DNA of 64,000 nucleotides, taken from assembly GCA_963827555.1 (NCBI GenBank), contig CAWHBL010000008.1:69135-133134 (forward strand), read 5' to 3'. A program made the position numbers and the translations under genes. The notes beneath the pieces were generated by a model. The model was not told the origin of the DNA. It searched no databases and saw nothing but the letters and a program-made list of their open reading frames with translations. Positions 27,780-59,772 of this stretch are shown piece by piece. The stretch's first letter is position 1, and every line of letters begins with the position of its first letter. This stretch comes from an uncultured beta proteobacterium. Its GTDB lineage: Bacteria > Pseudomonadota > Gammaproteobacteria > Burkholderiales > SG8-39.

Positions 27780-27781
27780 AC

Positions 27782-39190: not shown

Positions 39191-41737
39191 GTGAAGACGG
39201 CAGGTTTCTGGCGGAAGGACTGGTTTCTCGGCCTCGCGGTCGCGGTCGTCCTGTTCCTCTTCGCCGGCTCCGACCTGATCCAGAGCCTCGAGCGCAAGGC
39301 CTACGACCTCGGCGTACGCGCCACCGACCGCACGCCGTCCGACCGCATCGCGGTCGTCGCGATCGACGACGCGAGCATCCAGAACATCGGTCGCTGGCCG
39401 TGGCCGCGCGACGTGCACGCCAAGGTCACCGATCTCCTCGCCGGCGGGAAGGCGAAGGCGGTCGGCAACCTCGTGTTCTTCACCGAGCCGCAGCTCGATC
39501 CCGGCCTCGCGTACGTCAACAAGCTCGTGGCCGAGTACCAGAAGGCGGTGCCCGATCCGAACGCGGTCGAGCAGGGTTCCCCGCTCGCGATGATTGGCCA
39601 GCTGCTCGGCGAGGCGGAAAGCGCCCTCAACACCGACCGCAAGCTGGCGGCGAGCTACGAGAAGGCGGGCAACGTGCTGCTGCCGATGCTCTTCGAGCTC
39701 GGCGAGCCGCGCGGCAAACCCGACCGACCGCTGCCGGACTACGTCACGCGGAACGCGCTTGGCGCGGTCGAGACCGCTTCGCCCGAGCTGCCCTTCCCGA
39801 CGTCGGCGAACGTGACCTACCCGATCGACCTGGTGGGCAGGCACACCGCCGGAATCGGCCATTTAAACGCGCGCATCGACGTCGACGGCGCAGTCCGGTC
39901 GGAGCCGCTGGTGCTCGCCCACTTCGACCGGTTCTACCCGTCGCTCGCGACGCTGATCGCGGCGAAGAGCCTCAACCTCGGCGTCGGCGACATCAAGGTC
40001 GGCCTGGGCGAGGGCGTCAGCGTCGGCAACCTTCGGATCAAGACCGATCCGCAGTTGCAGATGTATACGTACTTCTACAAGGACCGCGACGGGCGGCCGG
40101 CGTTCGCGATCGATTCGTTCTTCGACCTGTACTCGGGCAAGGTGCCGGCCGACAAGTACCGCGACAAGATCGTGCTGATCGGCCCGACCGCCGCGGGCCT
40201 CGGCTTCGCCTCGGCGACGCCGGTGTCGCCCGCCATGGCGCCGGTGCTGACGCTCGCCCACGGCGTCTCGTCGATCCTGCTGGAGCACTTCTTCGTCGTG
40301 CCGAGCTGGGGCGTGTGGGCCGAGTACGCCGCGTACCTCGCGGTCGCACTGTATCTGATGATGATGCTGCCGCGGCTCAAGGCGGGGATGGCGGCGGCGG
40401 TGACCGGAACGCTGCTCGTCGCGCTCATCGCCGCCCATTTCGGGCTGATGACGGCGAAGGGCATGTGGCTGCAGCTGATGCTGCCGGCGGTGCTGCTCGT
40501 CCTCGGGCACGTCCTGCTCACGACCAAGCGCTTCCTCATGACCGAGCGCGGGAAGGAGCGGTCGGAGGCGGAGTCGGCGGCATCGAACCGGATGCTCGGG
40601 CTCGCCTATCAGGGCCAGGGCCAGCTCGACATGGCGCTCGACTACTTCCGCAGGTGCCCGGTCGACGACACGGTGCTCGACAACCTCTACAACCTCGCGC
40701 TCGACTTCGAGCGCAAGCGCCAGTTCAACAAGGCCGAAAACGTGTTCCGCTACATGGTGGAGCACAATCCGAAGTTCCGCGACCTCGGCGAGCGGCTCTC
40801 GCGCGCGAAGCAGCTCTCCGAGACGGTGATCTTCGGCGGCGGCGGACCGAAGGGCCACACCCGGATCCTCACCGGCGGGCAGGTGGAAAAGCCGATGCTC
40901 GGCCGCTACCAGGTCGAGAAGGAACTGGGCAAGGGTGCGATGGGCGTCGTCTACCGGGGCAAGGATCCGAAGATCGGCCGCGTGGTGGCGATCAAAACCA
41001 TGGCGCTCGCCCAGGAGTTCGAGGCCGACGAGCTCGAGGACGTGAAGGCGCGCTTCTTCCGCGAGGCGGAGACCGCCGGCCGGCTCAACCACCCCAACAT
41101 CGTCACCATCTTCGACGCCGGCGAGGAGCACGACCTCGCGTACATCGCGATGGAATTCCTGAAGGGCCGCGACCTCGTGCAGTACACGAAGCCGGGGGCG
41201 CTGCTGCCGGTGGAGAAGGTCGTGTCGATCACCGCCCGCGTCGCCAACGCACTCGGCTACGCCCACCGCCAGAACGTCGTCCACCGCGACGTGAAGCCGG
41301 CCAACGTCATGTACGAGCCGGAGTCGGACACCGTGAAGGTCACCGACTTCGGCATCGCCCGCATCACCGACTCGTCGAAGACCAAGACCGGCATGGTGCT
41401 CGGGACGCCGTCCTACATGTCGCCCGAGCAGCTTGCCGGCAAGAAGATCGACGGGCGCTCGGACCTCTTCTCGCTGTCGGTGAGCCTGTATCAGCTGCTC
41501 TGCGGCCGGCTGCCGTTCGACGGCGAGTCGATGGCGCAGCTCATGTTCAAGATCGCGAACGAGCCGGCGCCGGACATCCTGCAGTTCAACCCGAAGCTCC
41601 CGCCGGCGCTGGTGGCGTTCCTCGACCGGGCGATGGCGAAGGAGACGGAGGCGCGCTTCCAGACCGGGGACGAGTTCTCGCAGGCGCTGCGCGCGTCCGT
41701 GGGCACCCAGAAGCCGCAGGTCGACATCACGATATAA
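39191..41737 (+). CDS. CHASE2 sensor-domain transmembrane Ser/Thr protein kinase (Hanks type)
   Basis: GTG start. CHASE2 hallmark IAVVAIDDASIQNIGRWPWPRDVHA. TM cluster at roughly residues 360-450. TPR-like linker. Kinase motifs LGKGAMGVVY, VAIKTM, HRDVKPANVM, DFGIA, GTPSYMSPEQ. Confidence 0.9.
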   Translation: MKTAGFWRKDWFLGLAVAVVLFLFAGSDLIQSLERKAYDLGVRATDRTPSDRIAVVAIDDASIQNIGRWPWPRDVHAKVTDLLAGGKAKAVGNLVFFTEPQLDPGLAYVNKLVAEYQKAVPDPNAVEQGSPLAMIGQLLGEAESALNTDRKLAASYEKAGNVLLPMLFELGEPRGKPDRPLPDYVTRNALGAVETASPELPFPTSANVTYPIDLVGRHTAGIGHLNARIDVDGAVRSEPLVLAHFDRFYPSLATLIAAKSLNLGVGDIKVGLGEGVSVGNLRIKTDPQLQMYTYFYKDRDGRPAFAIDSFFDLYSGKVPADKYRDKIVLIGPTAAGLGFASATPVSPAMAPVLTLAHGVSSILLEHFFVVPSWGVWAEYAAYLAVALYLMMMLPRLKAGMAAAVTGTLLVALIAAHFGLMTAKGMWLQLMLPAVLLVLGHVLLTTKRFLMTERGKERSEAESAASNRMLGLAYQGQGQLDMALDYFRRCPVDDTVLDNLYNLALDFERKRQFNKAENVFRYMVEHNPKFRDLGERLSRAKQLSETVIFGGGGPKGHTRILTGGQVEKPMLGRYQVEKELGKGAMGVVYRGKDPKIGRVVAIKTMALAQEFEADELEDVKARFFREAETAGRLNHPNIVTIFDAGEEHDLAYIAMEFLKGRDLVQYTKPGALLPVEKVVSITARVANALGYAHRQNVVHRDVKPANVMYEPESDTVKVTDFGIARITDSSKTKTGMVLGTPSYMSPEQLAGKKIDGRSDLFSLSVSLYQLLCGRLPFDGESMAQLMFKIANEPAPDILQFNPKLPPALVAFLDRAMAKETEARFQTGDEFSQALRASVGTQKPQVDITI

Positions 41738-41739
41738 GA

Positions 41740-42564
41740 ATGAATTTGAGCCAGGCCCTCGAAATCGCCAGTTGCACCGACCCCGGCATCGTGCGCTCGC
41801 ACAATGAGGACTCGATCGCGGCCGACGCCTCGAAGGGTCTGGTCGTGCTCGCCGACGGCATGGGCGGCTACAACGCGGGCGAGGTCGCGAGCGGCATGGC
41901 GACCACCGTCATCACCACCGAGCTGCAGCACCTGCTCGAGGACACCCCGCCGTACAAGATCGAGCCGGCGACCGGCAAGCCGTTCGCCGACCGGCTGCTG
42001 CGCGAGCAGATCGCCAAGGCGAACACGTCGATTTTCCAGGCCGCGCAGAGCCAGCCGCAGTACTCGGGCATGGGCACCACCCTGGTAGCGGCCATGTTCT
42101 ACGACAACAAGGTGACGCTCGCGCACATCGGCGACTCCCGCGCCTACCGCCTGCGCGGCGAGGCGTTCGAGCAGCTCACCCGCGACCATTCGCTGCTCCA
42201 GGAGCAGATCGACAGCGGGATGATCACGCCGGAGCAGGCGAAGTTCTCGCAGAACAAGAACCTGGTGACGCGCGCGCTCGGGATCGACCCGACGGTCGAG
42301 CCGGAGATCCAGGTCTACCCGACCCAGACCGGCGACGTCTACCTGCTCTGTTCGGACGGGCTGAACGACATGGTCACCGACGAGGACATCGGCATGACGC
42401 TCCAGACGCTGTCGGCGAACCTCCGGCTCGCCGCGCAGCAGCTGGTGCAGATGGCGAACGACAACGGCGGGCGCGACAACGTGTCCGTGATTCTGGTACG
42501 GGTGGTGAAGGACTACGCCGCACCGCGCGGCTGGGTCGCGAGGTTCTTCAGCTGGCTGCGATAG
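41740..42564 (+). CDS. PP2C-family Ser/Thr protein phosphatase
   Basis: Starts 2 nt after the kinase stop. RSHNEDS, VLADGMGG, GTTLVAA, HIGDSRAY, LCSDGL, DNVSVILV. Confidence 0.9.
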   Translation: MNLSQALEIASCTDPGIVRSHNEDSIAADASKGLVVLADGMGGYNAGEVASGMATTVITTELQHLLEDTPPYKIEPATGKPFADRLLREQIAKANTSIFQAAQSQPQYSGMGTTLVAAMFYDNKVTLAHIGDSRAYRLRGEAFEQLTRDHSLLQEQIDSGMITPEQAKFSQNKNLVTRALGIDPTVEPEIQVYPTQTGDVYLLCSDGLNDMVTDEDIGMTLQTLSANLRLAAQQLVQMANDNGGRDNVSVILVRVVKDYAAPRGWVARFFSWLR

Positions 42565-42586: not shown

Positions 42587-43456
42587 ATGGCTATGCCTGC
42601 AAAGTTGATACTCAGTATGGACGGGTTGGTGCTCAAGGAGATCACGCTCGGGAAGGAGCGCACCACCATCGGGCGCAAGCCGCACAACGACATCCAGATC
42701 GACAATCTGGCGGTGTCCGGCGAGCACGCGGTGATCGTGACGATCCTCAACGATTCGTTCCTCGAGGACCTCGGCTCGACCAACGGCACGCTGGTGAACG
42801 GCCAGCCGATCAAGAAGCACTTCCTGCAGTCGAACGACGTGATCGAGCTCGGCAAGTACAAGCTGAAGTACATCAACGACCAGGCCGGGAAGACGACCGC
42901 GCCGCAGGACTTCGAGAAGACCATGGTCCTGCGACCCGGCGCCGCGCCCAAGCCCGGCGGCGCACCGGCCCCCGCCGCCGCGACGTCGCAGGCCATGCCG
43001 ACCATGTCGACCTCGCAACCCTCCCCGGCGATGTCGACCTCGCAGCCGATGAGGTCGGCGGGGCCCGCGACCCTGCCGCCCGCGCCACCGCCCGCGCCGT
43101 CGGCGTCGCAGCCGATGGCTACTTCGCAGGGGATGCCGACGATGGGCACCTCGCAGCCGCTGTCCGCGTCGCAGCCGATCGCGGCCGGGGGCAAGGTGGC
43201 GGCGATCCAGATCCTCTCCGGCGCGAACGCCGGCAAGGAGATGGAGCTCACCAAGGCGCTCACCACCCTCGGCAAGCCGGGCGTGCAGGTCGCGGTCATC
43301 ACCAAGCGGCCGCAGGGGTACTTCATCACCCACGTCGAGGGCGCGAACTTCCCGATCCTCAACGGCAAGCTGCTCGACGCGCAGGCGCATCCGCTCGGCG
43401 ACCACGACATCGTCGAGCTCGCCGGCGTGAAGATGGAGTTCTTCTACAAGACCTGA
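42587..43456 (+). CDS. FHA-domain protein: canonical N-terminal FHA, low-complexity linker with seven [ST]SQ repeats, degenerate FHA-like C-terminal domain
   Basis: N-terminal TTIGRKPHNDIQIDNLAVSGEHAVI...GSTNGTLVNG carries the conserved G-R, S-x-x-H and N-G positions. The C-terminal domain (LGKPGVQVAVI...ILNGKLL) lacks the Arg/Ser/His set. Confidence 0.88.
   Translation: MAMPAKLILSMDGLVLKEITLGKERTTIGRKPHNDIQIDNLAVSGEHAVIVTILNDSFLEDLGSTNGTLVNGQPIKKHFLQSNDVIELGKYKLKYINDQAGKTTAPQDFEKTMVLRPGAAPKPGGAPAPAAATSQAMPTMSTSQPSPAMSTSQPMRSAGPATLPPAPPPAPSASQPMATSQGMPTMGTSQPLSASQPIAAGGKVAAIQILSGANAGKEMELTKALTTLGKPGVQVAVITKRPQGYFITHVEGANFPILNGKLLDAQAHPLGDHDIVELAGVKMEFFYKT
42980..43177 (+). repeat. Imperfect in-frame coding repeats giving seven [AST][ST]SQ[PAG] motifs
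   Basis: ATSQA, STSQP, STSQP, SASQP, ATSQG, GTSQP, SASQP. The recurring DNA core is TCGCAGCC(G). Confidence 0.8.
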
Positions 43457-43544: not shown

Positions 43545-45767
43545 GTGAAGCAGTACGCCGTCCGGATCGCGCTTGGCCTCGCGGTCCTCGCCGCGTTCCT
43601 CGGCCACGCCGCGAAGTTCTACCGCATCCCGTTCGTCGACCAGCTCGACCGCATCATCTACGACACGCGGCTCCGCCTGACGATGCCGCGCGACCTCGAC
43701 GAGCGCATCGTCATCCTCGACATCGACGAGAAGAGTGTGGCGGCGCCCGAGCTCGGGCAGTGGCCGTGGAGCCGCGACGTCGTCGCCGGCCTGGTCGAGA
43801 AGCTGTTCGACAGGTACGGCGTCCTGATCCTCGGCTTCGACGTGGTGTTCGCCGAGCCCGACCGCTCGAGCGGGCTGCGCGTCCTCGACGGCCTGGCGAA
43901 GGGTCCGCTGAAGGACGTCCCCGACTTCCAGGCCGCGCTGGCGGAGCTGCGGCCGCGGCTCGACCACGACGCGCAGTTCGTGCGGACGATCAAGGGGCGG
44001 CCGGTGGTGCTCGGCTACTACCTTACGAGCGATCGCGACGCGCGCACGAGCGGGGTACTGCCGCCGCCGGTGCTCGCGCCCGGGACGTTCGCGAACCGGC
44101 CGATCGCGTTCACGTCGTGGACCGGGTACGGCGCCAATCTCGCCGACTTCCAGGCCGCGGCGGCGAGCACCGGGCATTTCAACCCGATCGCGGACGAGGA
44201 CGGGATCAACCGGCGGGTGCCGATGCTCGCCGAATACAAGGGCGCGTACTACGAGCCGCTGTCGCTCGCGGTGATGCGCACGCTGCTCGGGTTTCCCCCG
44301 GTGGAGCCCGGCTACCCGCCGGGGAGCGTGCTCAACCGCAACTATGCCGGCCTGGAGTGGCTCGACGTGGGGAAGCTGCGCATCCCGGTCGACGAGAACG
44401 CGTGCGCGCTCGTGCCCTATCGCGGCCCCAAGGGCAGCTTCCGCTACGTTTCGCTCGCCGACGTGTACCACGACCGGGTCCCGGTCGAGGCGCTCAAGGG
44501 CCGGATCGCGCTCGTGGGCACGACTGCGCCGGGGCTCTTCGACCTGCGCGCGACGCCGGTGGGGGCCGCGTATCCCGGCGTCGAGGTCCATGCCAACCTG
44601 ATCGCCGGCATGCTCGACGGCAACATCAAGGCAAGACCGGCCTACGTGCTCGGCGCGGAAGTCATCCTGCTGCTCGTCGGCGGCCTGACGCTCGCGATCT
44701 GGCTGCCGTTTCTCAGCCCGTTCCTCGCCACGGCAGTGTCCGTCGCCGCGCTCGTGCTGATCATCGGCCTCAGCACCAGCGTGTGGCTGCACGCCGACCT
44801 CGTCCTGCCGCTCGCCGCGAGCCTGCTGATGACGATCGGCCTCTTCGGGCTCAACATGTCGTACGGCTACTTCGTGGAAACCCGATCCAAGCGCGAGCTG
44901 ACCGAGCGCTTCGGCGAGTACGTGCCGCCCGAGCTGGTCGACGAGATGGCGCGCGATCCGGCGAAGTACAGCATGGAGGGCAGGGACGAGGTCCTCACGG
45001 TGCTCTTCACCGACATCCGCGCGTTCACCTCGATCGCCGAGGGCCTCGACCCGAAGGCGCTGTCGGCGTTCATGAACGAGTTTCTCACCGCGATGAGCCT
45101 CGTCATCCGCACTCGCCGCGGCACGCTCGACAAGTACGTCGGCGACCAGATCATGGCCTTCTGGGGCGCGCCGGTCGCCGACGGGCAGCACGCGCGCCAG
45201 GCGGTCAGCGCCGCGCTCGCGATGCAGGCCGAGCTCGTGCGGCTGAACGAGCGCTTCAGGGCGCGCGGCTGGCGCCCGATCGAGATCGGGGTCGGCGCCA
45301 ACACCGGCCCGATGCGCGTCGGCGACATGGGCTCGAAGCTGCGCAAGGCCTACACTGTGATGGGCGACGCGGTGAACCTCGCCTCCCGCCTGGAAGGGCT
45401 GACCAAACAGTACGGCGTCGGGATCCTCGTCGGCCAGGCGACGCGCGACGCCGCGGCGGACGTGGTGTTCCGCGAGGTCGACCGCGTGCGCGTGAAGGGC
45501 AAGGGCGAACCGGTGGCGGTCTATGAGCCGCTCGGGCTGGAGGCCGAGGTAGGCAAGGCGCGGGCCGAGGAGCTTAAGCTCTGGGCGCAGGCACTCAAGG
45601 CCTACCGCAGCCAGGCGTGGGAGCAGGCGGAACTTGTGCTCTTCAACCTGCAGCGGCTCTACCCCGGGGCGCCACTTTATTCCTTTTACGCTCAGCGGGT
45701 TGCGCGGTATCGTGCCGATCCTCCGCCGCCCGGATGGGACGGCGTGACGACGTTCGAGACGAAGTGA
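43545..45767 (+). CDS. CHASE2 sensor-domain transmembrane class III nucleotidyl (adenylate/guanylate) cyclase
   Basis: GTG start. CHASE2 hallmark IVILDIDEKSVAAPELGQWPWSRDV. TM cluster. Cyclase core LTVLFTDIRAFTS, LDKYVGDQIMAFWGAP, IGVGANTGPMRVGDMG, VMGDAVNLASRLE. Confidence 0.9.
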   Translation: MKQYAVRIALGLAVLAAFLGHAAKFYRIPFVDQLDRIIYDTRLRLTMPRDLDERIVILDIDEKSVAAPELGQWPWSRDVVAGLVEKLFDRYGVLILGFDVVFAEPDRSSGLRVLDGLAKGPLKDVPDFQAALAELRPRLDHDAQFVRTIKGRPVVLGYYLTSDRDARTSGVLPPPVLAPGTFANRPIAFTSWTGYGANLADFQAAAASTGHFNPIADEDGINRRVPMLAEYKGAYYEPLSLAVMRTLLGFPPVEPGYPPGSVLNRNYAGLEWLDVGKLRIPVDENACALVPYRGPKGSFRYVSLADVYHDRVPVEALKGRIALVGTTAPGLFDLRATPVGAAYPGVEVHANLIAGMLDGNIKARPAYVLGAEVILLLVGGLTLAIWLPFLSPFLATAVSVAALVLIIGLSTSVWLHADLVLPLAASLLMTIGLFGLNMSYGYFVETRSKRELTERFGEYVPPELVDEMARDPAKYSMEGRDEVLTVLFTDIRAFTSIAEGLDPKALSAFMNEFLTAMSLVIRTRRGTLDKYVGDQIMAFWGAPVADGQHARQAVSAALAMQAELVRLNERFRARGWRPIEIGVGANTGPMRVGDMGSKLRKAYTVMGDAVNLASRLEGLTKQYGVGILVGQATRDAAADVVFREVDRVRVKGKGEPVAVYEPLGLEAEVGKARAEELKLWAQALKAYRSQAWEQAELVLFNLQRLYPGAPLYSFYAQRVARYRADPPPPGWDGVTTFETK

Positions 45768-45827
45768 CTACCCGACACACCACCGGGCATTGCGACCGGG
45801 GCTGACCGGCCTCAGCTACCAAGAATC

Positions 45828-46598
45828 ATGCGGATCCGGGTCCTCGGCTGCAGCGGCGGGATCGGTGGGCGCCACCTGCGCACCACCTCGATGCTGCTCG
45901 ACCGCGACATCCTGATCGACGCCGGCACCGGCGTCTGCGACCTCACGCTCGCCGAGCTCACACCGATCGACCACGTGTTCCTCACCCACTCGCACCTCGA
46001 CCACGTCGCGGCGATCCCGTTCATGGTCGACACCGTCGGCCAGATGCGCGACGAGCCGCTGACCGTGCACGCGATCCCGGCGACGATCGAGATCCTGAAG
46101 AACCACGTCTTCAACTGGTCGATCTGGCCGGATTTCACCCAGATCCCGAGCGCCGACCGCCCGTTCCTGCGCTACGAGACGATCGAGCTCGGCGCGTCGG
46201 CGGACCTCGGCGGCGGGCGCACGATCACCGCGCTCCCGGCCAACCACGTGGTGCCCGCGATCGGCTACCAGCTCGACAGCGGGAAGGGCAGCCTCGTCTT
46301 CACCGGCGACACCACCACCAACGACGAGCTGTGGGCGATCGTCAACAAGATCGCGAACCTCAAGCATCTCATCATCGAGTGCGCGTTCTGCAATCGCGAG
46401 AAGCAGCTCGCGATCATGTCGAAGCACCTGTGCCCGAGCATGCTCGCCGAGGAGCTCGCCAAGCTCGAGCGGAGCTGCGACATCTTCATCACTCATCTCA
46501 AGCCGGGCGAGATCGAGCTGACGATGGAGGAGATCGAGGAGTACGCGGGCCAGTACCGGCCGCGGATGCTCCAGAACAACCAGGTCCTCGAGTTCTAG
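45828..46598 (+). CDS. Class II 3',5'-cyclic-nucleotide phosphodiesterase (metallo-beta-lactamase fold)
   Basis: MRIRVLGCSGG, LIDAGTG, FLTHSHLDH, FTGDT, ITHLKP. Confidence 0.85.
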   Translation: MRIRVLGCSGGIGGRHLRTTSMLLDRDILIDAGTGVCDLTLAELTPIDHVFLTHSHLDHVAAIPFMVDTVGQMRDEPLTVHAIPATIEILKNHVFNWSIWPDFTQIPSADRPFLRYETIELGASADLGGGRTITALPANHVVPAIGYQLDSGKGSLVFTGDTTTNDELWAIVNKIANLKHLIIECAFCNREKQLAIMSKHLCPSMLAEELAKLERSCDIFITHLKPGEIELTMEEIEEYAGQYRPRMLQNNQVLEF

Positions 46599-46607: not shown

Positions 46608-47681
46608 ATGGCCACCGAAAACGTAAGCATCCGGATCCTCAAGGCACTCGAACCCCTCTCGGCCCTGTCGGAGCAGCGGCTCACCGAGCTCGGCGAGCTC
46701 TGCGTCGTCGAGCGCGTCAGCAAGACGCTCGACCCGTTCCGCGTGAAAGGGGTGGCCGGCCAGCTCGTCTTCCTGCTGAAGGGCGAGCTCGCGCTCATCC
46801 TCGGCAACGGCAGCTCCGAGGTGTTGGTGGGCACGACCTCCGAGGCGCGCCACCCGCTCGGGCGCAAGACCCCGTTCGCCTACGCCAAGGCGATCACCGA
46901 CATCGAGCTCGTCCGCATCGACGAGGACCTGCTCGACATCATGGTCACCTGGGACCAGCTCGCCGCCGCCGACAAGACCGGTGCGCGCGCGTCCGAGAGC
47001 GGCGTGCCGTCGATGGCGAACTGGGCGATCCTGTCCGGCGTGTTCAGCATCAACAACCTCAAGTCGGGCGCGTTCGCGCAGCTCCCGACCGCGCACATCA
47101 ACGAGATGCTCAAGCGCTTCCAGCGGGTCGGAGCGAAGCGCGGGCAGGTCGTGATCCGCGAGGGCGACGCCGGCGACTACTACTACGTGCTCGAGGCCGG
47201 CAAGTGCCTGGTCGAGCGCAACGTCGGCGGCGTGTCGATGAAGCTCGCCGAGCTGAAGGGCGGCGACGCCTTCGGCGAGGAGGCGCTGGTCGCGAACGCG
47301 AAGCGCAACGCCACGGTAACGATGCTCGCGGAAGGCTCGCTCTTCAGGCTGGCGAAAGAGGATTTCAACGAGCTCCTCAAGAAGCCGCTGCTCCAGAGCG
47401 TGACGATGGAGCAGGCGCGGGCGAAGGTCGCCGGCGGCGGGCAGTGGATCGACACGCGCTACCCGTCCGAGTACCAGTACGACAAGCTCCAGGGCGCGAT
47501 CAACATCCCGCTCTCGGAGGTCAGGAACGCGGTCAAGGTGCTCGACCGGAGCCGGGAGTACGTCCTCTACTGCCAGAGCGGCCGCCGCAGCTCCGCGGCC
47601 GCGTTTCTGCTCGCGCAGCGCGGCTTCCGGGCGTTCGTCCTGGAGGGCGGGCTGCGGGGCGGCGCGGCGGGCGCGGGCTGA
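46608..47681 (+). CDS. Two cyclic-nucleotide-binding domains (first degenerate, second canonical) fused to a C-terminal rhodanese domain
   Basis: The second CNB domain has the phosphate-binding cassette GDAFGEEALVANAKRNATV. Rhodanese part: WIDTRYPSEY...VLYCQSGRRSSAAA with an active-site-loop Cys. Confidence 0.85.
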   Translation: MATENVSIRILKALEPLSALSEQRLTELGELCVVERVSKTLDPFRVKGVAGQLVFLLKGELALILGNGSSEVLVGTTSEARHPLGRKTPFAYAKAITDIELVRIDEDLLDIMVTWDQLAAADKTGARASESGVPSMANWAILSGVFSINNLKSGAFAQLPTAHINEMLKRFQRVGAKRGQVVIREGDAGDYYYVLEAGKCLVERNVGGVSMKLAELKGGDAFGEEALVANAKRNATVTMLAEGSLFRLAKEDFNELLKKPLLQSVTMEQARAKVAGGGQWIDTRYPSEYQYDKLQGAINIPLSEVRNAVKVLDRSREYVLYCQSGRRSSAAAFLLAQRGFRAFVLEGGLRGGAAGAG

Positions 47682-47958
47682 CCGCCGCGGGCGGATTCCT
47701 CCCGGCCCGGGTCTTGCATACTCGGCCCGATGGCGGGCGCGAAGGGTGCGCTCCAGGGTTACGACAGCATGCTCGGGGGTCGTTGTTTCGCTTGAAAAAA
47801 GCCGCAAGGAGCGGTGCCGCGCGGTTGCCCGGGCGCCGGGCGGACGCTAAATTTCGTGTTTGCCTCTCCGGGCGCAGTGGCGGCCGGAGCGGCGTTTCGC
47901 CGTGCGCGCCCGCCGGCGCGGCGACGGTATCGACGGCCATCCGACAGGACGTGACGCT

Positions 47959-50323
47959 ATGAGCGCAGTGCTTAGCCCCCATTCCGCCGCCGCCGGCGAC
48001 GTCAACACCCGGCTCGCGTTCCAGAAGTCCCTGCAGACCGTCACGAACCGGATCCACGCCACCAGCAACGTCGACGAGATCATGCTGGAGGTGTCGAGCG
48101 AGATCTGCAGCCTGTTCAACGCCGACCGGCTCACGATCTACGTCACGGCCGAGGACAAGGCGTCGATCATCTCCAAGGTCAAGACCGGCCTCAACTCGTT
48201 TCGCGACCTGAAGCTCCCGCTCGCCGAGCACTCGCTCGCCGGCTACGCCGGGATGTCGCGGAAGATGATGAACCTCCGCGACGTCTACGACGACGCCGAG
48301 CTGAAGAGCCACAACGCCAACCTGCGCTTCCTGCAGGAGGTGGACAAGCGCACCGGCTACCGCACCAAGCAGATGCTGGTGGCGCCGATCCTCGACGCGC
48401 CCGCGGGCGACCTGCTCGGCGTGGTCCAGCTGATCAACAGCAAGGCCGGCGGGCCGTTCAGCCCGCTCGCCGAAGAGGGCATGGTCGAGCTGTGCAAGAC
48501 GCTCGCGATCGCGCTCAAGCAGCGCGCGAAGCTCGCGATGCCGAAGTCGAAGTACGACTTCCTCGTCGCCGACGCGGAGATCTCGGCCGCCGAGCTCGAG
48601 ACCGCCGCGCGCAACGCGCGCAAGAAGGCGATCGACATCGAGACGGTGCTGGTCGAGGAGTGCAACGTCAAGCCGGCCTCGATCGGCGAAGCGCTCGCCA
48701 AGTTCTTCGGCGTCAAGTACGAGCCGTCACAAGCCGGACCGCGTCAAGCCGATGGATCTGCTCAAGAACCTCAAGCGCGAGTACGTCGCCGAGCACCAGT
48801 GGTGCCCGCTCGAGGAGAACCCGCAGGGGCTGCTGGTGATGTGCCTCGACCCGGAGCGGGTCAAGGCGTCGAGGGTCGTCAACAACATCTTCCCGAAGGC
48901 GCGGATCAAGTACGTCGTCACCACGCTCAAGGAGTTCAAGGATACGCTCGACCCGTTCTTCGGCGCCGCCGCCGACCTCGGCGACATCGGCGACCTGCTC
49001 GAGGGCCTGACCCCCGAGGAGGAAGGCGACCCGAACGCGACCGACGACCTCTCGGCGGCGGCCGACAACGAGCTGGTGAAGCTCGTGAACAAGATCATCG
49101 TCGACGCCTACAACCAGGGCGCCTCCGACATCCACATCGAGTCCTACCCGGGCAAGGCGAAGACCGAGATCCGGTTCCGCCGGGACGGGACGCTCGCGCC
49201 CTACATCGAGGTGCCGGCCTCCTACCGGAGCGCCCTCTGCGCGCGCCTCAAGATCATGTGCGACCTCGACATCTCCGAGCGCCGCAAGCCGCAGGACGGC
49301 AAGATCAAGTTCAAGAAGTTCGGTCCGCTCGACATCGAGCTGCGCGTGGCCACGATCCCGGTGCAGGGCGGCGTCGAGGACATCGTGATGCGTATCCTCG
49401 CCGCCGGCGAGCCGATCCCGCTCGACAAGCTGGGTCTCACGCCGCACAACCTGCCGCGGCTGAAAGCGGTCATCGAGAACCCGTACGGGTTGTTCTTCTG
49501 CTGCGGGCCGACCGGCTCGGGCAAGACGACCACGCTCCACTCGGTGCTCGGCCACCTCAACACGCCCGACACCAAGATCTGGACCGCGGAGGACCCGGTC
49601 GAGATCACGCAGAAGGGCCTGCGCCAGGTGCAGATCAACCGCAAGGCGGGGATGGACTTCCCGACGATCATGAAGGCGTTCCTGCGCGCCGACCCGGACA
49701 TCATCATGGTCGGCGAGATGCGCGACAAGGAGACGACCTCGATCGGCATCGAGGCCTCGCTCACCGGCCACCTCGTGTTCGCCACCCTGCACACGAACAG
49801 CGCGCCGGAATCGATCGTCCGACTGCTCGACATGGGCATGGACCCGTTCAACTTCGCCGATGCGCTGGTCGGCATCCTGGCGCAGCGACTCGCGAAGCGC
49901 CTGTGCGGGAAGTGCAAGCAGCCGTACAACCCGGGACAGGACGAGATCAAGGGACTGCTCCAGGAGTACTGCCAGGAGCTGCTCCACACGCCCGAGTTCA
50001 AGAAGGACGCGAAGGCCGGGTTCGAGCGCGTGTACAAGGACCTCGTCAAGACCTACGGCGACGACAAGGGCCAGTTCACGTTCTACCGCAAGGCCGGCTG
50101 CGACGCGTGCGGCAACTCCGGCTACAAGGGCCGGCTCGGCCTGCACGAGCTGCTGGTCGGCACCGACGCGATCAAGAAGAACATCCAGGAGCACGCGCGG
50201 GTCGCCGAGATGCTCGCGACCGCGCTCGAGGAAGGCATGCGCACGCTGAAGATGGACGGCATCGAGAAGGTCATGCAGGGCGTCACCGACATGGCCCAGG
50301 TCCGCGCGGTTTGCATCAAATAG
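47959..50323 (+). CDS. GAF - T2SSE_N - GspE/PilB-family hexameric secretion ATPase (orphan), one frame change as read
   Basis: GAF: NVDEIMLEVSSEICSLFNADRLTIYV...TGYRTKQMLVAPI...GVVQLINS. The frame changes near 48727-48730 between FFGVKYEP and KPDRVKPMDLLKNLKREY. ATPase: Walker A GPTGSGKTTT, Walker B DPDIIMVGEMRD, His box TGHLVFATLHTN, tetra-Cys CGKC...CDACG. Confidence 0.88.
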
Positions 50324-50475: not shown

Positions 50476-52183
50476 ATGAGCACGGTACCCAGCCTGGTCG
50501 CGGTCGGCCGCGAAGTCGAGCGCGGCGACGACGGAACGCCGGCCGACCTCTTCCGGCGGCTCGAGCAGCTGAACGAGATCGGCGCGGCGCTGTCGCTCGA
50601 GAGGAACCTCAACGCGCTGCTCGAGAAGATCCTGCTCGCGGTCAAGGCGATCACCCGCGCCGACGGCGGCACGCTGTACCTGGTCGAAGGCGAGGGCGCC
50701 GAGCAGGTGCTGCGGTTCGAGATCGTCCGCACCGCCTCGCTCGACGTCGCGATGGGCGGCACCACCGGCAACCCGATCCCGTTCTACCCGATCCACCTGT
50801 TCAAGAACGGCGACCCGAACACCTCCATGGTGGCGGCGTTCGCGGCGCTCACCGGCCAGACGGTGAACATCGCCGACGCCTACACCGAGGAGGGGTTCGA
50901 CTTCTCCGGCACGCGCGCGTTCGACGCCAAGACCGGCTACCGCTCGCAGTCGTTCCTGACCGTGCCGATGAAGAACCACGAGGCCGAGATCATCGGCGTC
51001 CTGCAGCTGATCAACTGCCAGGACCCGGACACCGGGGCGATCGCCCCGTTCTCGCCGTCGGATCAGCGGCTCGCCGAGTCGCTCGCCTCGCAGGCGGCGA
51101 TCGCGCTCACCAACCGCGCGCTGATCAACCAGCTCGAGCACCTGTTCGAGTCGTTCATCAACATGATCAACGAGGCGATCGACGAGAAATCGCCCTACAC
51201 CGGCGGCCACTGCCAGCGGGTGCCGACAGCTGACGATGATGCTCGCCGAGGCGGTGAACGACACGTTGGACGGCCCGCTGTCCGAGTTCACCATGACCGA
51301 GAAGGACCGCTACGAGCTCCGGATCGCGGGCCTGCTCCACGACTGCGGCAAGATCACCACCCCGGTCCACGTCGTCGACAAGGCGACCAAGCTCGAGACG
51401 ATCTTCGACCGCATCAACCTGATCGACACCCGGTTCGAAGTGCTCAAGCGCGACGCCGAGATCGACGCGCTCAACAAGAAACTCGAGCTCGCGCGCGGGG
51501 CGGGGGTGGACGAGATCACCCGGCGCGACCGCACCTACGCGATCGACGAGGAGCTGCGTGACACCGTGCGCCAGATCGAGGAGGACCGCAAGTTCCTCCG
51601 CCGCTGCAACATCGGCAGCGAGTCGATGTCGAAGGAGGAGCAGGACCGCGCCACCCAGATCGGGCTCGGCTACAAATGGCGCGACCCGATCGGCAACACC
51701 GCCGACTTCCTCACCGACGACGAGCTGAAGAACCTCACCATCTCGCGCGGTACCCTCACCCAGGAGGAGCGCGAGATCATCAACCACCACATCGTCTCGA
51801 CGATCAAGATGCTCGAGGCGCTGCCGTGGCCGAAGCACCTGCGCAACGTGCCGGAGTACGCCGGCGGCCACCACGAGCGCATGGACGGCAAGGGCTACCC
51901 GCGCGGGCTCACGCGCGACCAGATGTCGGTGCAGGCGCGGGTGATGGGCATCGCCGACATCTTCGAGGCGCTGACCGCCAAGGACCGTCCGTACAAGAAG
52001 GGCAAGACCCTGTCCGAGTCGCTGCACATCCTCGGGAAGTTCAAGCTGAACGGCCACATCGACCCGGACCTCTTCGACGTGTTCATCCGCCGGCGCGTCT
52101 ACCTCAAGTACGCGGAGCAGTTCCTCGACGCGGAGCAGATCGACCGCGTCGACGAGTCGAAGATCCCGGGGTACGTGCCGTAA
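50476..52183 (+). CDS. GAF - HD-GYP cyclic-dinucleotide phosphodiesterase-type protein, one frame change as read
   Basis: GAF: LNALLEKILLAVKAITRADGGTLYLV...TGYRSQSFLTVPM...GVLQLINC. The frame changes near 51226 between GGHCQRVP and QLTMMLAEAV. HD-GYP: AGLLHDCGKI ... GGHHERMDGKGYPRGL. Confidence 0.88.
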
Positions 52184-52274
52184 CCGCCGCTCGGCGCGCA
52201 CCGCCTCGCGATCGCCGCACGATGCCGTCCCAGGCGCCCGCTGACCTGCGCGCGCGACCGCCGGTCCTGCGCTG

Positions 52275-53966
52275 ATGCTCGCCAGCCTGTTCCGATCGCT
52301 TCGCTCCGGGCGGGCGGCGAAGCTGCATGACGAAGCGATCAGCCACTGGCATCGCAACGACATCGGTGGCGCCGAGCAGATCTTCCGCCGCGCCCTCGCG
52401 CTCAATCCCGGCCTCATGGCCGCATGGTCCAACCTCGGCCTAGTGCTGCGCGAGCAGGGTCGGGCGGAGGAGGCGATCGACTGCCTTGGCCGCGCGGTCG
52501 AGATCGCGCCGCGGAGCGCCGTCGCGCGCTTCAATCTGGCTGCCGCGCTGATGACTTCGGCGCGCACCGACGAGGCGCTTGTGCATTTTCGCGAGTCGAT
52601 CCGGCTCGATCCGGCGCTCGCACAGGCGCGGGCGACGATCGTCAAGCCGCTGCTCGACCGCTGCGACTGGGACGAGGCCGACGAGCAGGTCGCCGGCCTG
52701 GTCGAGCTGTGCCGCCGCGACCCGCGGGCGGCCGCCGCCGTCCCGCCATTCCTGTCGCTGCTTGTCGCCCTCGGGCCCGAGCTGCGGCTGACGATCGCCC
52801 GCGCGAACGCCGCGACGGTGGGCGCGAAGGTGCGATCGCTTCCGCGTCCGACGCGCGCCCGCGCGTCGAAAGGGGGCCGCCTGCGCATCGGCTACGTGTC
52901 GGCCGATCTGCACCAGCACGCCGTGGCGTTGACCGCGGTGCGCCTCTTCGAGCTTCACGATCGCGACCGCTTCGAGACCTTCGCCTATTCGTTCGACGCC
53001 GCGCCAGACAGCGCGATCCGGCGCCGTCTGCGGGGGGCATTCGAGCACTTTGTCGACGTGCAGGGGGAGGCGTTCGACGCGACCGCGCAGCGCATTGCGG
53101 CGGACGGCATCGACCTGCTCATCGACCTGATGGGCTACACCGCCGCGGCGCGCCCCGAGCTCTTCGCCCTCCGGCCCGCGCCGGTCCAGGCGGCTTTCCT
53201 CGGCTTCGCCGGGACCACCGGGGCCGACTACATGGACGCGATCATCGCCGATGCCGTGGCGATCCCGCCGACCGACGAGCGCTGGTATTCGGAACAGGTG
53301 GTGCGGATGCCGGCCACGTTCTTTCCGGTCGACGACCTGCGGGTGCTGCCCCGGCCGGCGGAGCGCGCGGCGTTCGGCCTGCCCGACGACGCCTTCGTGT
53401 TCGCCTCGTTCGGCCTGCACTGCAAGATCGAGCGCGACGTATTCGTCCGCTGGCTCGAGATCCTGAAGCGCGTGCCGGGCAGTCTGCTGTGGCTCTCGCG
53501 CGGTCCGGGCGAGGCGCGCCTGCAGCGCGCCGCCGCCGATGGCGGGGTCGATCCTGCGCGGCTGCGCTTCGCGTCGCGGCTGCCCGACGAGGCCGATTAC
53601 CTCGCGCGGCTACGGAGCGCTGATCTCTTCCTCGACACGCGGACCTACAACGCGCATTCGACCGGGGCCGACTCGCTGTGGGCGGGCCTTCCCGTGCTCA
53701 CGGTGCAGGGCGATGGGTTTGGAGGCCGGGTGGGCGCGAGCCTGGTCCAGGCGGCCGGGCTGCCCGAGCTGGTGGCGAACGATCTGGACGACTACGAGGC
53801 GCGTGCCGTCGGCCTTGCCGCCCATGGGCGCCTGCGGGCCATGCGTGCAGCCCTCGACGCCGATCGCGCGCGCGTCCGGCTGTTCGACTCGGCGCGGTTT
53901 GCGCGCGAACTGGAAGCGGTGTTCGAGGAAGCCGTCGTGCGGGCCGGGGCTGGGCGTCCCGCGTAG
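52275..53966 (+). CDS. TPR-repeat protein with a C-terminal GT41 (O-GlcNAc transferase / SPINDLY-like) glycosyltransferase domain
   Basis: TPRs: AEQIFRRALALNPG, GRAEEAIDCLGRAVEIAP. GT41 body: RLRIGYVSADLHQHAV, HDRDRFETFAYS, IDLLIDLMGYTAAARPELFALRPAPVQAAFLGFAGTTGADYMD, NAHSTGADSLWAGLPVLT. Confidence 0.85.
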   Translation: MLASLFRSLRSGRAAKLHDEAISHWHRNDIGGAEQIFRRALALNPGLMAAWSNLGLVLREQGRAEEAIDCLGRAVEIAPRSAVARFNLAAALMTSARTDEALVHFRESIRLDPALAQARATIVKPLLDRCDWDEADEQVAGLVELCRRDPRAAAAVPPFLSLLVALGPELRLTIARANAATVGAKVRSLPRPTRARASKGGRLRIGYVSADLHQHAVALTAVRLFELHDRDRFETFAYSFDAAPDSAIRRRLRGAFEHFVDVQGEAFDATAQRIAADGIDLLIDLMGYTAAARPELFALRPAPVQAAFLGFAGTTGADYMDAIIADAVAIPPTDERWYSEQVVRMPATFFPVDDLRVLPRPAERAAFGLPDDAFVFASFGLHCKIERDVFVRWLEILKRVPGSLLWLSRGPGEARLQRAAADGGVDPARLRFASRLPDEADYLARLRSADLFLDTRTYNAHSTGADSLWAGLPVLTVQGDGFGGRVGASLVQAAGLPELVANDLDDYEARAVGLAAHGRLRAMRAALDADRARVRLFDSARFARELEAVFEEAVVRAGAGRPA

Positions 53967-53989
53967 GCGCTCCGCGCCCGCGGCCGCGT

Positions 53990-56104
53990 TCAGCGTGGAA
54001 CGACGATGTGCTCCGGCGGCAGGCCGGCGACCGCGCGGTCCCGCATTGCGGCGTACGCCCACTCCAGCGCGCGGGTGTAGCCAGCACTGTCGAAGAGTGG
54101 CGCAGCCGGCGCCTGCGCGGCCAGGCGGGCGCGCAGCGCCGCGCGCCGCGGCGGCGTCTTCACCAGGTCGAGCACCAACGCGCGGTACTCGTCGAGCGAC
54201 CACGTCGCGAGCTCCCCGAGTCCGACCGCGCGCAGCAGGCTGGCCGCCACCCGCGAGGCGAACGTCTCGCCGGCGAGGGTGACCACCGGCACGCCGGCCC
54301 ATAGTGCGTCGCTGCAGGTGGTGTGCGCGCCGTACGGGAACGTGTCGAGGAACAGGTCGGCGCAGCGCATGCGGGCGATGTGGTCCTCGAGTCGCGGCAC
54401 GTACCCCGCGACGACCAGGCGCCCGCCGTCGATGCCACGCCGGGCGAGCTCGGCGCGCAGGTTCGCGATCGCCGCCCGATGCGACTCCACCATCCACAGC
54501 ACGGCACCCGGCGCGGCCGCGAGCGCTTCGCACCACACGTCGAGCACCGGCGGGGTCACCTTGTGCGCCTGATGGAAGCAGCACAGGACGAGGCCTTGCG
54601 CCGGCAGCCCGTACGCTTCGCGCGTCTGCGTGATGCCGACGGTCCGCTGACGGTCGTTCGGCTGGAAGCAGTGCGGGAGCTGCACGATCTTCTCGGCGTA
54701 GTGCGGCTCGAGCTCGAGCGGGGTGACCGTGGCGTCGCCGACGAGGTAGTCCATGAGCCCGGTTCCGAGCGTACCCGGAAAGCCGAGGTAGCCGACGAGC
54801 ACCGCCGCCGGTCGGCGGGCGAACACGCCGTGGCGCGCCCCGTTCGTGTATCCGTTGAGGTCGACCAGGATGTCGATCTCGTCGGCGTGGATCCTCGCCG
54901 CCGCGGCGGCGTCGCTCTCCGCCGCGATGTCGACGAAATCGTCGAACGCGCCCTCGAGGCGTCGCCGCATACCCCCGGACCGGGTCGCCGCGGTCGAGTA
55001 GGCGAGCACCTGGAAGGCGGCGCGATCATGCAGCTCGATCACTTCGGCGAGGAGCCGGGACACGGCGTGATCGCGGAAATCCGAGGAGACGTAACCCAGC
55101 CGGAGCCACTGGCGACGCGCCGGGTGTCGGACCGGGCAACGGGCGCTCCCGACGCGCCGGAGCGTGTGCGCTGCCCAGCGGTCGGCGACGCGGCGCAGCT
55201 CCGCCGCGCTGGCGGAGAACGAGCACCACACGAGCGGGTGCAGCACCGGGCCGCCGGAGTCGAGGGCGGCGCGCATCAGTGCCTGCTCGCGCTCGAGCCC
55301 GTTCCAGTCACAGGCCTGCAGCTTCTCGCGCAGCAGCCAGCCGAGCGCGTCGGCGTTGCCGGGCTCGAGCGCGAGCGCCGCCTCGAGCGCCGCGATGGCC
55401 TCGGGGCCGCGGCCGGCAAGGGCGAGGACGTTGCCGAGCGTGGCGTGCAGCGCGACCGAGCGGGGCGCGGCCGCGACGCCGGCGGTCAGCGCCGCGACGG
55501 ACTCCTCCAGCGCGCCCGCGTCGCGCAACGCCTCCCCGAGGCGGCAGTGCAGCGCCGCGTCGGCGGGGTCGAGCGCGACGGCGCGTCGCAGGACGTCTGC
55601 CGCCTGTCGCGGCCGGTGCGCCGCGAGGAGAGCAAGGCCGAGGTGGCCGAGCGCGGCGCTTGAGCCCGGTTCGGCGGCGACCGCCCGCTCCAGCGACGCG
55701 ATCGCGTCGTCCTCGCGCCCCTGCGCGACCAGCAGCGCGCCGAGCTCCGCGTGCGCCGCCGCGTTCACCGGCGCGTTGACCGGCGCGAGACGGATGGCTT
55801 CGCGATAGCACTGCACGGCGTCGTCAACCCGCTCGAGCCGCGCGTAGGCGCGGGCGAGGAAAAGTCGCGCTTCGGGGTCGCCGGGTGCCAGCGCGATCGC
55901 GCGTTCCAGCCTGGCTGCGGCGGCGTCGAACCGCCCGCGGTTGCCTTCCAGGAATCCGAGCAGGAACCAGGCGCGCGCGAAGGCCGGCGCTTCGGCAGTG
56001 ACGGCCTCGAGCAGGCTGGCGGCGGCGTCGAGCTGGCCCGCGCGGAAGCGTTCGCCAGCGGTCTTGAACCGCTCGGCGATGTCGGCCGGCAGGGAATCTC
56101 CCAC
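53990..56104 (-). CDS. TPR-repeat protein with a C-terminal GT41 (O-GlcNAc transferase-like) domain
   Basis: C-terminal 704 aa of ORF 53990..57910, with GTG at 56102-56104 as the first plausible start. At least 7 TPRs. LRLGYVSSDFRDHAV, HDRAAFQVLAYS, IDILVDLNGYTNGARHGVFARRPAAVLVGYLGFPGTLG, GAHTTCSDALWAGVPVVT. Confidence 0.82.
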   Translation of the reverse strand: MGDSLPADIAERFKTAGERFRAGQLDAAASLLEAVTAEAPAFARAWFLLGFLEGNRGRFDAAAARLERAIALAPGDPEARLFLARAYARLERVDDAVQCYREAIRLAPVNAPVNAAAHAELGALLVAQGREDDAIASLERAVAAEPGSSAALGHLGLALLAAHRPRQAADVLRRAVALDPADAALHCRLGEALRDAGALEESVAALTAGVAAAPRSVALHATLGNVLALAGRGPEAIAALEAALALEPGNADALGWLLREKLQACDWNGLEREQALMRAALDSGGPVLHPLVWCSFSASAAELRRVADRWAAHTLRRVGSARCPVRHPARRQWLRLGYVSSDFRDHAVSRLLAEVIELHDRAAFQVLAYSTAATRSGGMRRRLEGAFDDFVDIAAESDAAAAARIHADEIDILVDLNGYTNGARHGVFARRPAAVLVGYLGFPGTLGTGLMDYLVGDATVTPLELEPHYAEKIVQLPHCFQPNDRQRTVGITQTREAYGLPAQGLVLCCFHQAHKVTPPVLDVWCEALAAAPGAVLWMVESHRAAIANLRAELARRGIDGGRLVVAGYVPRLEDHIARMRCADLFLDTFPYGAHTTCSDALWAGVPVVTLAGETFASRVAASLLRAVGLGELATWSLDEYRALVLDLVKTPPRRAALRARLAAQAPAAPLFDSAGYTRALEWAYAAMRDRAVAGLPPEHIVVPR

Positions 56105-56139
56105 GGCGGTGAGGGCCGCGTGCGGCCCCTGGCGCGCGC

Positions 56140-56490
56140 CTAGTTCTTCTCGGCCGGCGTCGACTCGGTCGACGTCGGTGCGCCCCGAGTGATGTACACC
56201 ATCAGACCCTCGGTCGCGACCTCGATGAACTTTTCCGTGTACCCGAGTTCCTTCAACTGCCACTTGAATTCGTTGCCGAGCTTCGCCTTGCCGAACAGAC
56301 CGAGGCGGTTCGCCCGCTGGAACTCGGCGGCCTGCGCGAGCGTCTCCTCGAGCACCTTCGTGAGGCGGGCGGCCGAGATCTTCTTTTCCGGGCTCATGTC
56401 GAGCGCGGGTGGGTAGCGCTTCGCGAGCTGGCCAGCGAGCGCCTGCGCGAACTCGGTGACGTGCTTGGTCGAAAAGGGCCAGAACGGCAT
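56140..56490 (-). CDS. Hypothetical protein (116 aa)
   Basis: MPFWPFSTKHVTEFAQALAGQLAKRY.... Lies between the 2OG-oxygenase-like gene and the GT41 gene on the same strand. No family recognised. Slightly lower GC. Confidence 0.5.
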   Translation of the reverse strand: MPFWPFSTKHVTEFAQALAGQLAKRYPPALDMSPEKKISAARLTKVLEETLAQAAEFQRANRLGLFGKAKLGNEFKWQLKELGYTEKFIEVATEGLMVYITRGAPTSTESTPAEKN

Positions 56491-56531
56491 GTTGGTTGGT
56501 CTCCTGCGGCTTCGTTTCGCCTGCGCGTCTC

Positions 56532-58068: not shown

Positions 58069-58323
58069 CTTCCGCGCGGGGGGTGCCGGAGCTCGCTCGC
58101 AGCGGCGGCTAGTCTCAGCTCCGCTCGGCTCCGGCGAACTCAGCTAGTGTACCCAGCGTCCGCGCCGACTGTCCACGCTCAATCCGCCCGCGAGCGCACA
58201 ATTTCCTCGTCCGGCCGGGGCGCCGCTGGCGCCGATTGCGGATCCGCTGCGGTCGTGACCTATGCACGTCCGCACCGCGGACCGCGGCCTATAATTCGAG
58301 GTCGCACGCACGAGGACAACGTC

Positions 58324-59712: not shown

Positions 59713-59772
59713 GGTCGCGGCGGCGGCAACCGCCTCGGAGCGCGCTTCACTCTTCCCACCGGCCGGCCGGCG

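Follow-up and report, generated by a model that had tools for sequence, protein, structure and literature searches.

The 64,000-nt stretch of DNA considered here (contig CAWHBL010000008.1 of an uncultured betaproteobacterium; below, the window) carries, at 47959..50323 on the forward strand, a gene for a GspE/PilB-family ATPase with an N-terminal GAF domain. A preliminary description of this DNA took the interval as one gene, but it is not a single open reading frame (ORF): its 2365 nt are not a multiple of 3, and the gene spans two frames. From the ATG at 47959, frame 1 gives a sensible N-terminus as far as ...FFGVKYEP and then nonsense through 50430; frame 2, closed by the stop at 50323, encodes ...KPDRVKPMDLLKNL... 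plus the entire ATPase. Insertions and deletions (indels) were called against L001, a Joint Genome Institute (JGI) metagenome contig with 97-98% DNA identity to the window over ~17 kb. The L001 ATPase gene is intact, its product reading ...VKYEPHKPDRVKPMDLL..., with EPHKPDRVKPM in a single frame. Against it, the window has one surplus base in this gene, a T at 48727 (GAGCCG-T-CACAAG; alignment gap at L001 10868), and the resulting break falls within the MshEN domain. With this T deleted, a repaired ATPase of 787 aa is obtained. The parts of the gene and the motifs it encodes are placed as follows:

47959..48726, + strand: ATPase gene, N-terminal part (aa 1-256, frame 1), with the GAF domain at 48070-48516 and the four-helix N-terminal half of MshEN at 48550-48726
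48340-48372, + strand: VDKRTGYRTKQ, invariant motif of the GAF domain (ortholog alignment)
48727..48727, + strand: extra T shifting the frame, not in the near-identical contig L001
48728..50323, + strand: ATPase gene, C-terminal part (aa 257-787 plus stop, frame 2), with the rest of MshEN at 48740-48970 and T2SSE at 49061-50302
49505-49528, + strand: Walker A, GPTGSGKT
49583-49603, + strand: Asp box, TAEDPVE
49691-49726, + strand: Walker B
49760-49798, + strand: His box
49904-49915, + strand: CGKC, first CxxC pair
50099-50110, + strand: CDAC, second CxxC pair

The preliminary description had read a full ATPase core here (Walker A/B, Asp and His boxes, tetra-Cys site), preceded by one T2SSE_N and one GAF domain, and this holds: every motif is present at the coordinates above, and Pfam finds both N-terminal domains in the repaired product. 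Its architecture is GAF-MshEN-T2SSE, with GAF at aa 38-186 (E 4e-9), MshEN/T2SSE_N at aa 261-337 (E 6e-8), and T2SSE (PF00437) at aa 368-781 (E 1.1e-113, profile positions 4-368 of 370). The Walker B and His box sequences are DPDIIMVGEMRD and LTGHLVFATLHTN, respectively. Core residues of all four boxes are invariant in 28 orthologs, as is the tetracysteine zinc site (C649, C652, C714, C717). Between the two CxxC pairs lie 61 residues (aa 653-713, 49916-50098), ~30 more than in Myxococcus xanthus PilB; the insert is helical in a low-confidence model, and includes a conserved E...L..EY stretch that is present in distant GAF-ATPases too.

Among solved structures, the repaired protein scores highest with M. 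xanthus PilB (366 bits), followed by Thermus PilF and Geobacter PilB (~335), Vibrio cholerae GspE (~308), and PilT (~105). The zinc site, the MshEN domain, and the difference between 366 and ~105 bits identify it as an extension-type (PilB/GspE) rather than a retraction-type (PilT) ATPase. Its best NCBIfam model is PilB (TIGR02538), at 472.4 bits against an equivalog cut-off of 675.65; the GspE model (TIGR02533) gives 432.4 bits against 630.25. Since both scores lie below their cut-offs, it is best described as a paralogue resembling PilB; it is neither a canonical PilB nor a canonical GspE. A neighbour-joining tree of the ATPase core, without support values and so given little weight, interleaves GAF-bearing and GAF-less proteins and puts M. 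xanthus PilB outside the clade of the window protein. No Rfam family matched anywhere in the window at gathering thresholds, and none at E <= 1 in 47600-48050, where a regulatory RNA upstream of the ATPase gene might lie.

The GAF and MshEN domains

Searched against solved structures, the GAF sequence finds first the tandem cAMP-binding GAFs of Anabaena CyaB2 (E 2e-24), next the GAF of the HD-GYP enzyme PmGH, and then the GAFs of PDE2A, PDE10A, PDE5, and PDE6. A full-length AlphaFold model was unusable (predicted local distance difference test score, pLDDT, 48; shallow alignment), and the fold was examined with an AF2 model of the N-terminal 256 aa (pLDDT 87.7). With this model Foldseek returned PmGH, CyaB2, and the PDE GAFs again, plus the cAMP-bound GAF of Leptospira Lcd1. 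By sequence and by modelled fold, the domain is a member of the cAMP/cGMP-binding GAF subfamily. Its stretch LRFLQEVDKRTGYRTKQML aligns with a segment common to CyaB2/PDE-type GAFs, one that contributes to their nucleotide pocket; the stretch is invariant in the 28 orthologs and largely retained in distant GAF-ATPases.

The MshEN domain is of interest because MshE-type ATPases, including V. cholerae MshE and Pseudomonas aeruginosa PA14_29490, are gated through it by cyclic di-GMP (c-di-GMP; PMC5013675). Binding relies on two copies of a 24-residue motif, RLGxx(L/V/I)(L/V/I)xxG(L/V/I)(L/V/I)xxxxLxxxLxxQ (Wang et al., PMC5013675). Neither a strict nor a relaxed form of this motif turned up when the repaired protein and 120 orthologs were searched by pattern; as a control, a made-up consensus was matched twice. 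With the motif absent, c-di-GMP gating of the MshE type is unlikely here. The suggestion in the preliminary description that c-di-GMP, the substrate of the HD-GYP protein encoded next door, might be the ligand finds no backing: the MshEN motif is missing, and a GAF of this type suggests a cyclic mononucleotide.

Neighbouring genes and their conservation

The ATPase gene lies among putative signalling genes on the same strand, and further downstream are a pilin gene and others:

39191..41737, + strand: CHASE2-TPR-Ser/Thr protein kinase (Pfam CHASE2 1.6e-48, Pkinase 6e-53)
41740..42564, + strand: PP2C-type protein phosphatase
42587..43456, + strand: FHA-domain protein (Pfam FHA 1.2e-21)
43545..45767, + strand: CHASE2 class III nucleotidyl cyclase (Lys in DKYVGD, Thr in YTVMGD)
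45828..46598, + strand: class II-like cyclic-nucleotide phosphodiesterase of the metallo-beta-lactamase fold (Pfam PDEase_II; HxHxDH)
46608..47681, + strand: cyclic nucleoside monophosphate (cNMP)-binding and rhodanese-domain protein (Pfam)
50476..52183, + strand: GAF-HD-GYP phosphodiesterase gene (extra A at 51226; repaired product 568 aa, HHERMDGKGYP intact, TGYRS-type GAF)
52245-53966: TPR-GT41 glycosyltransferase, between the HD-GYP and pilin genes
57292-58143, minus strand: FkbM methyltransferase, between the HD-GYP and pilin genes
59713-63304: two TPR proteins, one with a weak Wzy_C_2 match
63556-63969, + strand: type IVa pilin (MKSIQKG/FTLIELMIV...), the only pilin found in the window, 13.2 kb downstream of the ATPase gene

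Both metal-binding aspartates are present in the cyclase, together with the Asn and Arg of GDAVNLASR. Its Lys (KY[I/M]GD) is kept in all 57 orthologs in which the motif could be located; the Thr motif was matched by pattern in 35 of the 57. A Lys/Thr pair specifies the substrate in class IIIb adenylate cyclases, of which Spirulina CyaC is one, and by this pair the enzyme is predicted to be of the adenylate cyclase type. The HxHxDH motif of the phosphodiesterase is conserved among its orthologs. The GAF of the HD-GYP protein is 30% identical to that of the ATPase over 103 aa, with TGYR(S/T) and GV.QLIN signatures in common. Two smaller points concern these neighbours. The HD-GYP domain (gene at 50476-52183) has ~100 residues unmatched by Pfam HD_5 between its HD and HHE..GYP parts, resembling an insertion reported for GAF-linked HD-GYP proteins (PMC12943098), and at 43076 in the FHA gene, a 12-nt in-frame repeat unit (CCGCCCGCGCCA) differs from L001.

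Full-length orthologs of the ATPase (787-790 aa, 76-97% identity) are abundant in metagenomes, and a scan of species-representative genomes gave at least 598 matches. Nearly all of the best 80 of these are labelled Betaproteobacteria; they include Burkholderiales metagenome-assembled genomes (MAGs), Rhodocyclaceae, Gallionella, Sideroxydans, Nitrosomonas, Noviherbaspirillum sp. Root189, and Parachitinimonas caeni. More widely, when 1.84 billion cluster representatives were searched exhaustively, 13,667 proteins reached E <= 1e-30, and of the best 150 clusters at 50% identity, 58 have a homologous N-terminal GAF. The architecture is thus common in species matches and nearest clusters alike, a point that the preliminary description had overlooked. 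Of the GAF-less nearest neighbours, ten were scored, and all fell short of the PilB and GspE cut-offs. Automatic annotation labels proteins of this architecture "GspE/PulE family protein" or "GAF domain-containing protein," and a full-text literature search found no paper describing or testing a GAF-PilB ATPase and no published description of the gene cluster.

Synteny was assessed by searching the proteins of the window's neighbouring genes against 81 loci and by clustering all ORFs, with counts taken only over loci with enough flanking sequence. The recurrent same-strand order is CHASE2 kinase, PP2C, FHA, CHASE2 class III cyclase, phosphodiesterase, optional cNMP-binding/rhodanese protein, ATPase, and GAF-HD-GYP protein. 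Genes were found near the ATPase gene as follows:

Phosphodiesterase: 68/77 loci (tightest-linked neighbour)
GAF-HD-GYP: 67/72 loci
Cyclase: 52/66 loci
PP2C: 46/60 loci
FHA protein: 42/63 loci
Kinase: 35/55 loci
cNMP-binding/rhodanese: 30/75 loci
Pilin: 34/65 loci, directly after the HD-GYP gene in 20/50

Phosphodiesterase and ATPase form a minimal pair, retained even in Nitrosomonas and Noviherbaspirillum. Compared to the window, L001 is missing 2064 bp (688 codons) of the kinase gene (39267-41330) and 1113 bp (371 codons) of the cyclase gene (44055-45167), and two other contigs, L002 and L004, have the same shortened spacing. Some close lineages therefore seem to have lost both CHASE2 sensors while keeping PP2C, FHA, phosphodiesterase, ATPase, and HD-GYP. 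A few kb downstream of the cluster in six loci, including L019 (20652-22067), L033, and L054, is a gene read from its sequence as a Ser/Thr kinase apparently fused to a cNMP-binding domain, a possible further cAMP reader tied to the cluster.

The Pfam-scanned ORFs of the window (parts of 2.9-5, 7.8-9.3, 54-56, and 58.2-59.7 kb being uncovered) include no match to pilC, pilD, or pilMNOPQ, in agreement with the earlier statement that no platform or pilin-processing genes are adjacent; the distance of some 13 kb given there for the sole pilin gene is also correct. The word "orphan," applied to the ATPase on these grounds, fits the lack of platform genes nearby, but not the relatives' loci in which a pilin directly follows the HD-GYP gene. 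Similarly, glycosyltransferase and methyltransferase genes do lie before the window's pilin, but the "unrelated island" they were said to form may be related to it after all. TPR-glycosyltransferase and O-antigen-ligase-like genes akin to those of 52186-63555 recur beside the pilin in 7-13 other loci; because of this recurrence the region looks like pilin-modification cargo, and it may be a pilin glycosylation cassette.

Candidate ligand and possible role in pilus extension

The leading candidate for the ligand of the ATPase GAF is cAMP. It is favored by the Lys/Thr pair of the cyclase, the PDEase_II-type phosphodiesterase, the signatures shared with the GAF of the HD-GYP protein, and the precedent of Tlr0485, a GAF-HD-GYP protein whose activity reportedly requires cAMP on its GAF (bioRxiv 10.1101/2021.11.05.467447). 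The preliminary description had proposed that the GAF might put the motor under small-molecule control, possibly by the product of the neighbouring cyclase, and this idea gains support from the GAF subfamily, the cyclase type, and the linkage seen in the 81 loci. On this basis the ATPase would be an accessory, cAMP-gated type IVa pilus extension motor within a conserved betaproteobacterial module, a reading to which we would assign a probability of roughly 0.55.

A working scheme can be outlined. A periplasmic cue would act on the CHASE2 class III adenylate cyclase, raising cAMP, which could be read by the ATPase GAF, by the GAF of the adjacent HD-GYP protein, and in some genomes by the cNMP-binding/rhodanese protein. 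On the ATPase, cAMP might change hexamer activity or platform docking by way of the long GAF-MshEN helix (H169-193 in the model); the same cAMP would activate the GAF-HD-GYP enzyme, lowering c-di-GMP, until the class II-like phosphodiesterase removed it and reset the signal. The CHASE2 Ser/Thr kinase, PP2C, and FHA proteins could add a phospho-threonine gate. The ATPase itself would dock on a type IVa pilus machine whose genes lie elsewhere, and drive polymerisation of the pilin whose gene often follows shortly downstream. The regulatory part of this scheme, with cAMP from the CHASE2 cyclase both switching a dedicated PilB paralogue at the motor and activating the GAF-HD-GYP enzyme, and with kinase, PP2C, and FHA as a second input, is offered tentatively, at somewhat poorer than even odds.

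Several observations weigh against a cAMP-gated pilus motor. The NKFDE motif is the signature of cAMP/cGMP-binding GAF domains, and here it is only partly kept: N160, K162, F167, and E172 are present, but Ala171 stands in place of the Asp. The ATPase GAF also departs from PDE2A at the positions by which the latter selects cGMP, and the sequence does not fix cAMP, cGMP, or another ligand. Nitrosomonas loci retain phosphodiesterase and ATPase only; L001, L002, and L004, close relatives of the window, are without most of the cyclase and yet retain the GAF-ATPase. Of the distant GAF-ATPases, three were inspected, one of which could be placed in a Nitrospirota lineage; each gene stands alone, with neither cyclase nor pilus genes beside it. 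When the 81 loci were inspected (recurrent clusters and isolate neighbours, by sequence, with no profile scan), no pilC, pilD, or pilMNOPQ turned up within 10 kb of the ATPase gene, and a nearby pilin is missing from 31 of 65 loci; for these two reasons the pilus output is, like the ligand and the allosteric gating, something we infer. Finally, the frameshift is in the deposited sequence, since the 523-aa C-terminal ORF exactly matches a protein-collection entry (from a 143,842-bp contig), and the change at 48727 could be a real mutation.

With respect to the ligand, the GAF might sense something other than cAMP: cGMP, c-di-GMP, or a metabolite. GAF ligands are not reliably readable from sequence, the closest structural match (the PmGH GAF) has no known ligand, a c-di-GMP enzyme adjoins the ATPase gene, and the cyclase is missing from some close relatives. 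Nevertheless, apart from PmGH, the strongest sequence and fold matches are all to cAMP/cGMP-binding GAFs, the cyclase has the adenylate-type pair, and the most tightly linked gene encodes a class II-like cyclic-mononucleotide phosphodiesterase, making a different ligand unlikely, if still worth keeping in mind.

With respect to the motor, the protein could be the housekeeping PilB, its partners (pilC, pilD, pilMNOPQ) encoded elsewhere and its GAF a ligand-free structural or dimerisation module. The closeness of the core to PilB would fit, as would the type IVa pilin often found directly downstream and the unusually high conservation of the orthologs (65-97% identity). A housekeeping PilB would hardly be expected, however, to score 472 bits against the 675.65-bit equivalog cut-off, never to be found beside pilC or pilD in 81 loci, or to keep a cyclic-nucleotide phosphodiesterase gene as a linked neighbour in 68 of 77; the invariant GAF pocket motif also argues for a ligand, and this explanation seems improbable. 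Alternatively, there may be no pilus role at all, the protein serving another type IV filament, a type II-like export system, or mainly a cAMP-dependent signalling scaffold. Linkage to a platform gene in none of the 81 loci would be consistent with this, as would the stand-alone distant GAF-ATPases and the character of the nearest 50%-identity clusters, heterogeneous PilB/GspE-like proteins with long N-termini of which 0/10 tested reach the cut-offs. Against this, the catalytic motifs and the zinc site are all intact and invariant, and the recurrence of a same-strand type IVa pilin right after the module (in Burkholderiales, Rhodocyclaceae, and Gallionella MAGs) points to pili. We regard a function unconnected with pili as a poor prospect, and a cAMP-gated extension motor as the better account of the protein.

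Comparison with known systems helps to place this proposal. With PilB (M. xanthus 3jc8, Geobacter 5tsg, Thermus PilF) the window ATPase shares an MshEN/N1-like domain, N2, the C-terminal ATPase with its Walker, Asp, and His boxes, and the tetracysteine site; it differs in its N-terminal GAF, the ~30 extra residues between CxxC pairs, its sub-cut-off score, and the absence of adjacent pilC or pilD. It resembles MshE-type ATPases in the MshEN fold and in the concept of a second messenger binding the N-terminal domain of a GspE/PilB-family ATPase, but lacks both 24-residue motifs, and its presumed sensor is a GAF of the cyclic-mononucleotide type. That second messengers can gate PilB-family motors is already known; what we propose is that such gating may occur here via this GAF instead of MshEN and c-di-GMP. 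The cAMP/cGMP GAFs of CyaB2 (1ykd), PDE2A/5/6/10, and Lcd1 (5w10) have the same (S/T)G(F/Y)RT, IAG, and GV.QL.NK signatures, whereas the output in the window is a secretion-type ATPase and not a cyclase, phosphodiesterase, or diguanylate cyclase, NKFDE is partial, and binding is predicted. GAF-HD-GYP phosphodiesterases (PmGH, 4mcw; the cAMP-dependent Tlr0485) share the architecture of the gene adjoining the ATPase, not that of the ATPase, and the product of this adjoining gene has the ~100 residues unmatched by HD_5.

In P. aeruginosa, type VI secretion is controlled by a threonine-phosphorylation switch, PpkA-PppA-Fha1. As in that system, a Ser/Thr kinase, a PP2C phosphatase, and an FHA protein are encoded beside a secretion or filament ATPase, but the machine is a different one and the link in the window is by gene neighbourhood alone.

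Where nucleotides are known to control pilus and secretion ATPases, they do so by way of c-di-GMP on MshEN, and cAMP controls pili mainly via transcription, by the cAMP-Vfr route. A GAF-fused PilB paralogue without the c-di-GMP motif, encoded with an adenylate-type cyclase, a cyclic-nucleotide phosphodiesterase, a GAF-HD-GYP protein, and often pilA, suggests that cAMP acts directly on the motor, and the module as a whole suggests built-in cross-talk from cAMP to c-di-GMP. If correct, this would be a direct post-translational cAMP-to-pilus pathway in at least ~600 betaproteobacterial species, distinct from both cAMP-Vfr and c-di-GMP-MshEN. The cultured carriers Noviherbaspirillum sp. Root189, Parachitinimonas caeni, and Nitrosomonas sp. 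Nm51 make it testable at the bench.

The extra base in the ATPase gene

The frameshifts in the ATPase gene (48727) and in the HD-GYP gene (extra A at 51226 relative to L001) were overlooked in the preliminary description. Programmed frameshifting at 48727 was considered and rejected, since there is no slippery motif and no zero-frame stop nearby, and the base is not in L001, which is of the same species. Other conserved genes of the window are broken as well:

22559-25382: formate dehydrogenase alpha
27613-29531: formate-tetrahydrofolate ligase (FTHFS)
36332-37757: CoA-transferase
45820-45823: start of the phosphodiesterase gene
51226: GAF-HD-GYP

The formate dehydrogenase alpha and FTHFS genes are both split over two frames. 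Compared with L001, single-base insertions number seven in the CoA-transferase gene, which is intact there, and two at the start of the phosphodiesterase gene. The assembly of the window looks indel-prone. For the ATPase gene, window against L001, the ratio of nonsynonymous to synonymous substitution rates (dN/dS) is 0.27 over the full length and 0.19 for the part beyond the shift. Because split genes and insertions of one base recur across the window, L001 has an intact copy, dN/dS is low, and signals for a programmed shift are lacking, the extra T is probably an assembly or sequencing error rather than the mark of a real pseudogene.

It is nonetheless conceivable that the T at 48727 and the A at 51226 are real mutations, inactivating the output half of the module. 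The deposited sequence is, as noted, frameshifted; the two lesions hit adjacent genes of one module; the insertion at 48727 lies outside any homopolymer; and the loss of kinase and cyclase in L001, L002, and L004 would fit a module decaying in this lineage. On the other hand, unrelated housekeeping genes (CoA-transferase, formate dehydrogenase alpha, FTHFS) are affected in the same way, as in an indel-prone assembly, the ATPase gene has no further lesions and a dN/dS of 0.19 downstream of the shift, and its repaired product is 97% identical to intact orthologs, all of which makes a true pseudogene rather unlikely. The copy of the ATPase in the window may be either non-functional or mis-assembled. 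For annotation, frame-breaking indels such as those in this assembly can mimic pseudogenes or split "orphan" genes.

A small second cNMP-binding protein is encoded at 33775-34401 (minus strand), 14 kb upstream of the ATPase gene; the Pfam domains of its neighbours (thiamine pyrophosphate (TPP) enzyme, CoA-transferase, formyltransferase) suggest oxalate or formate metabolism.

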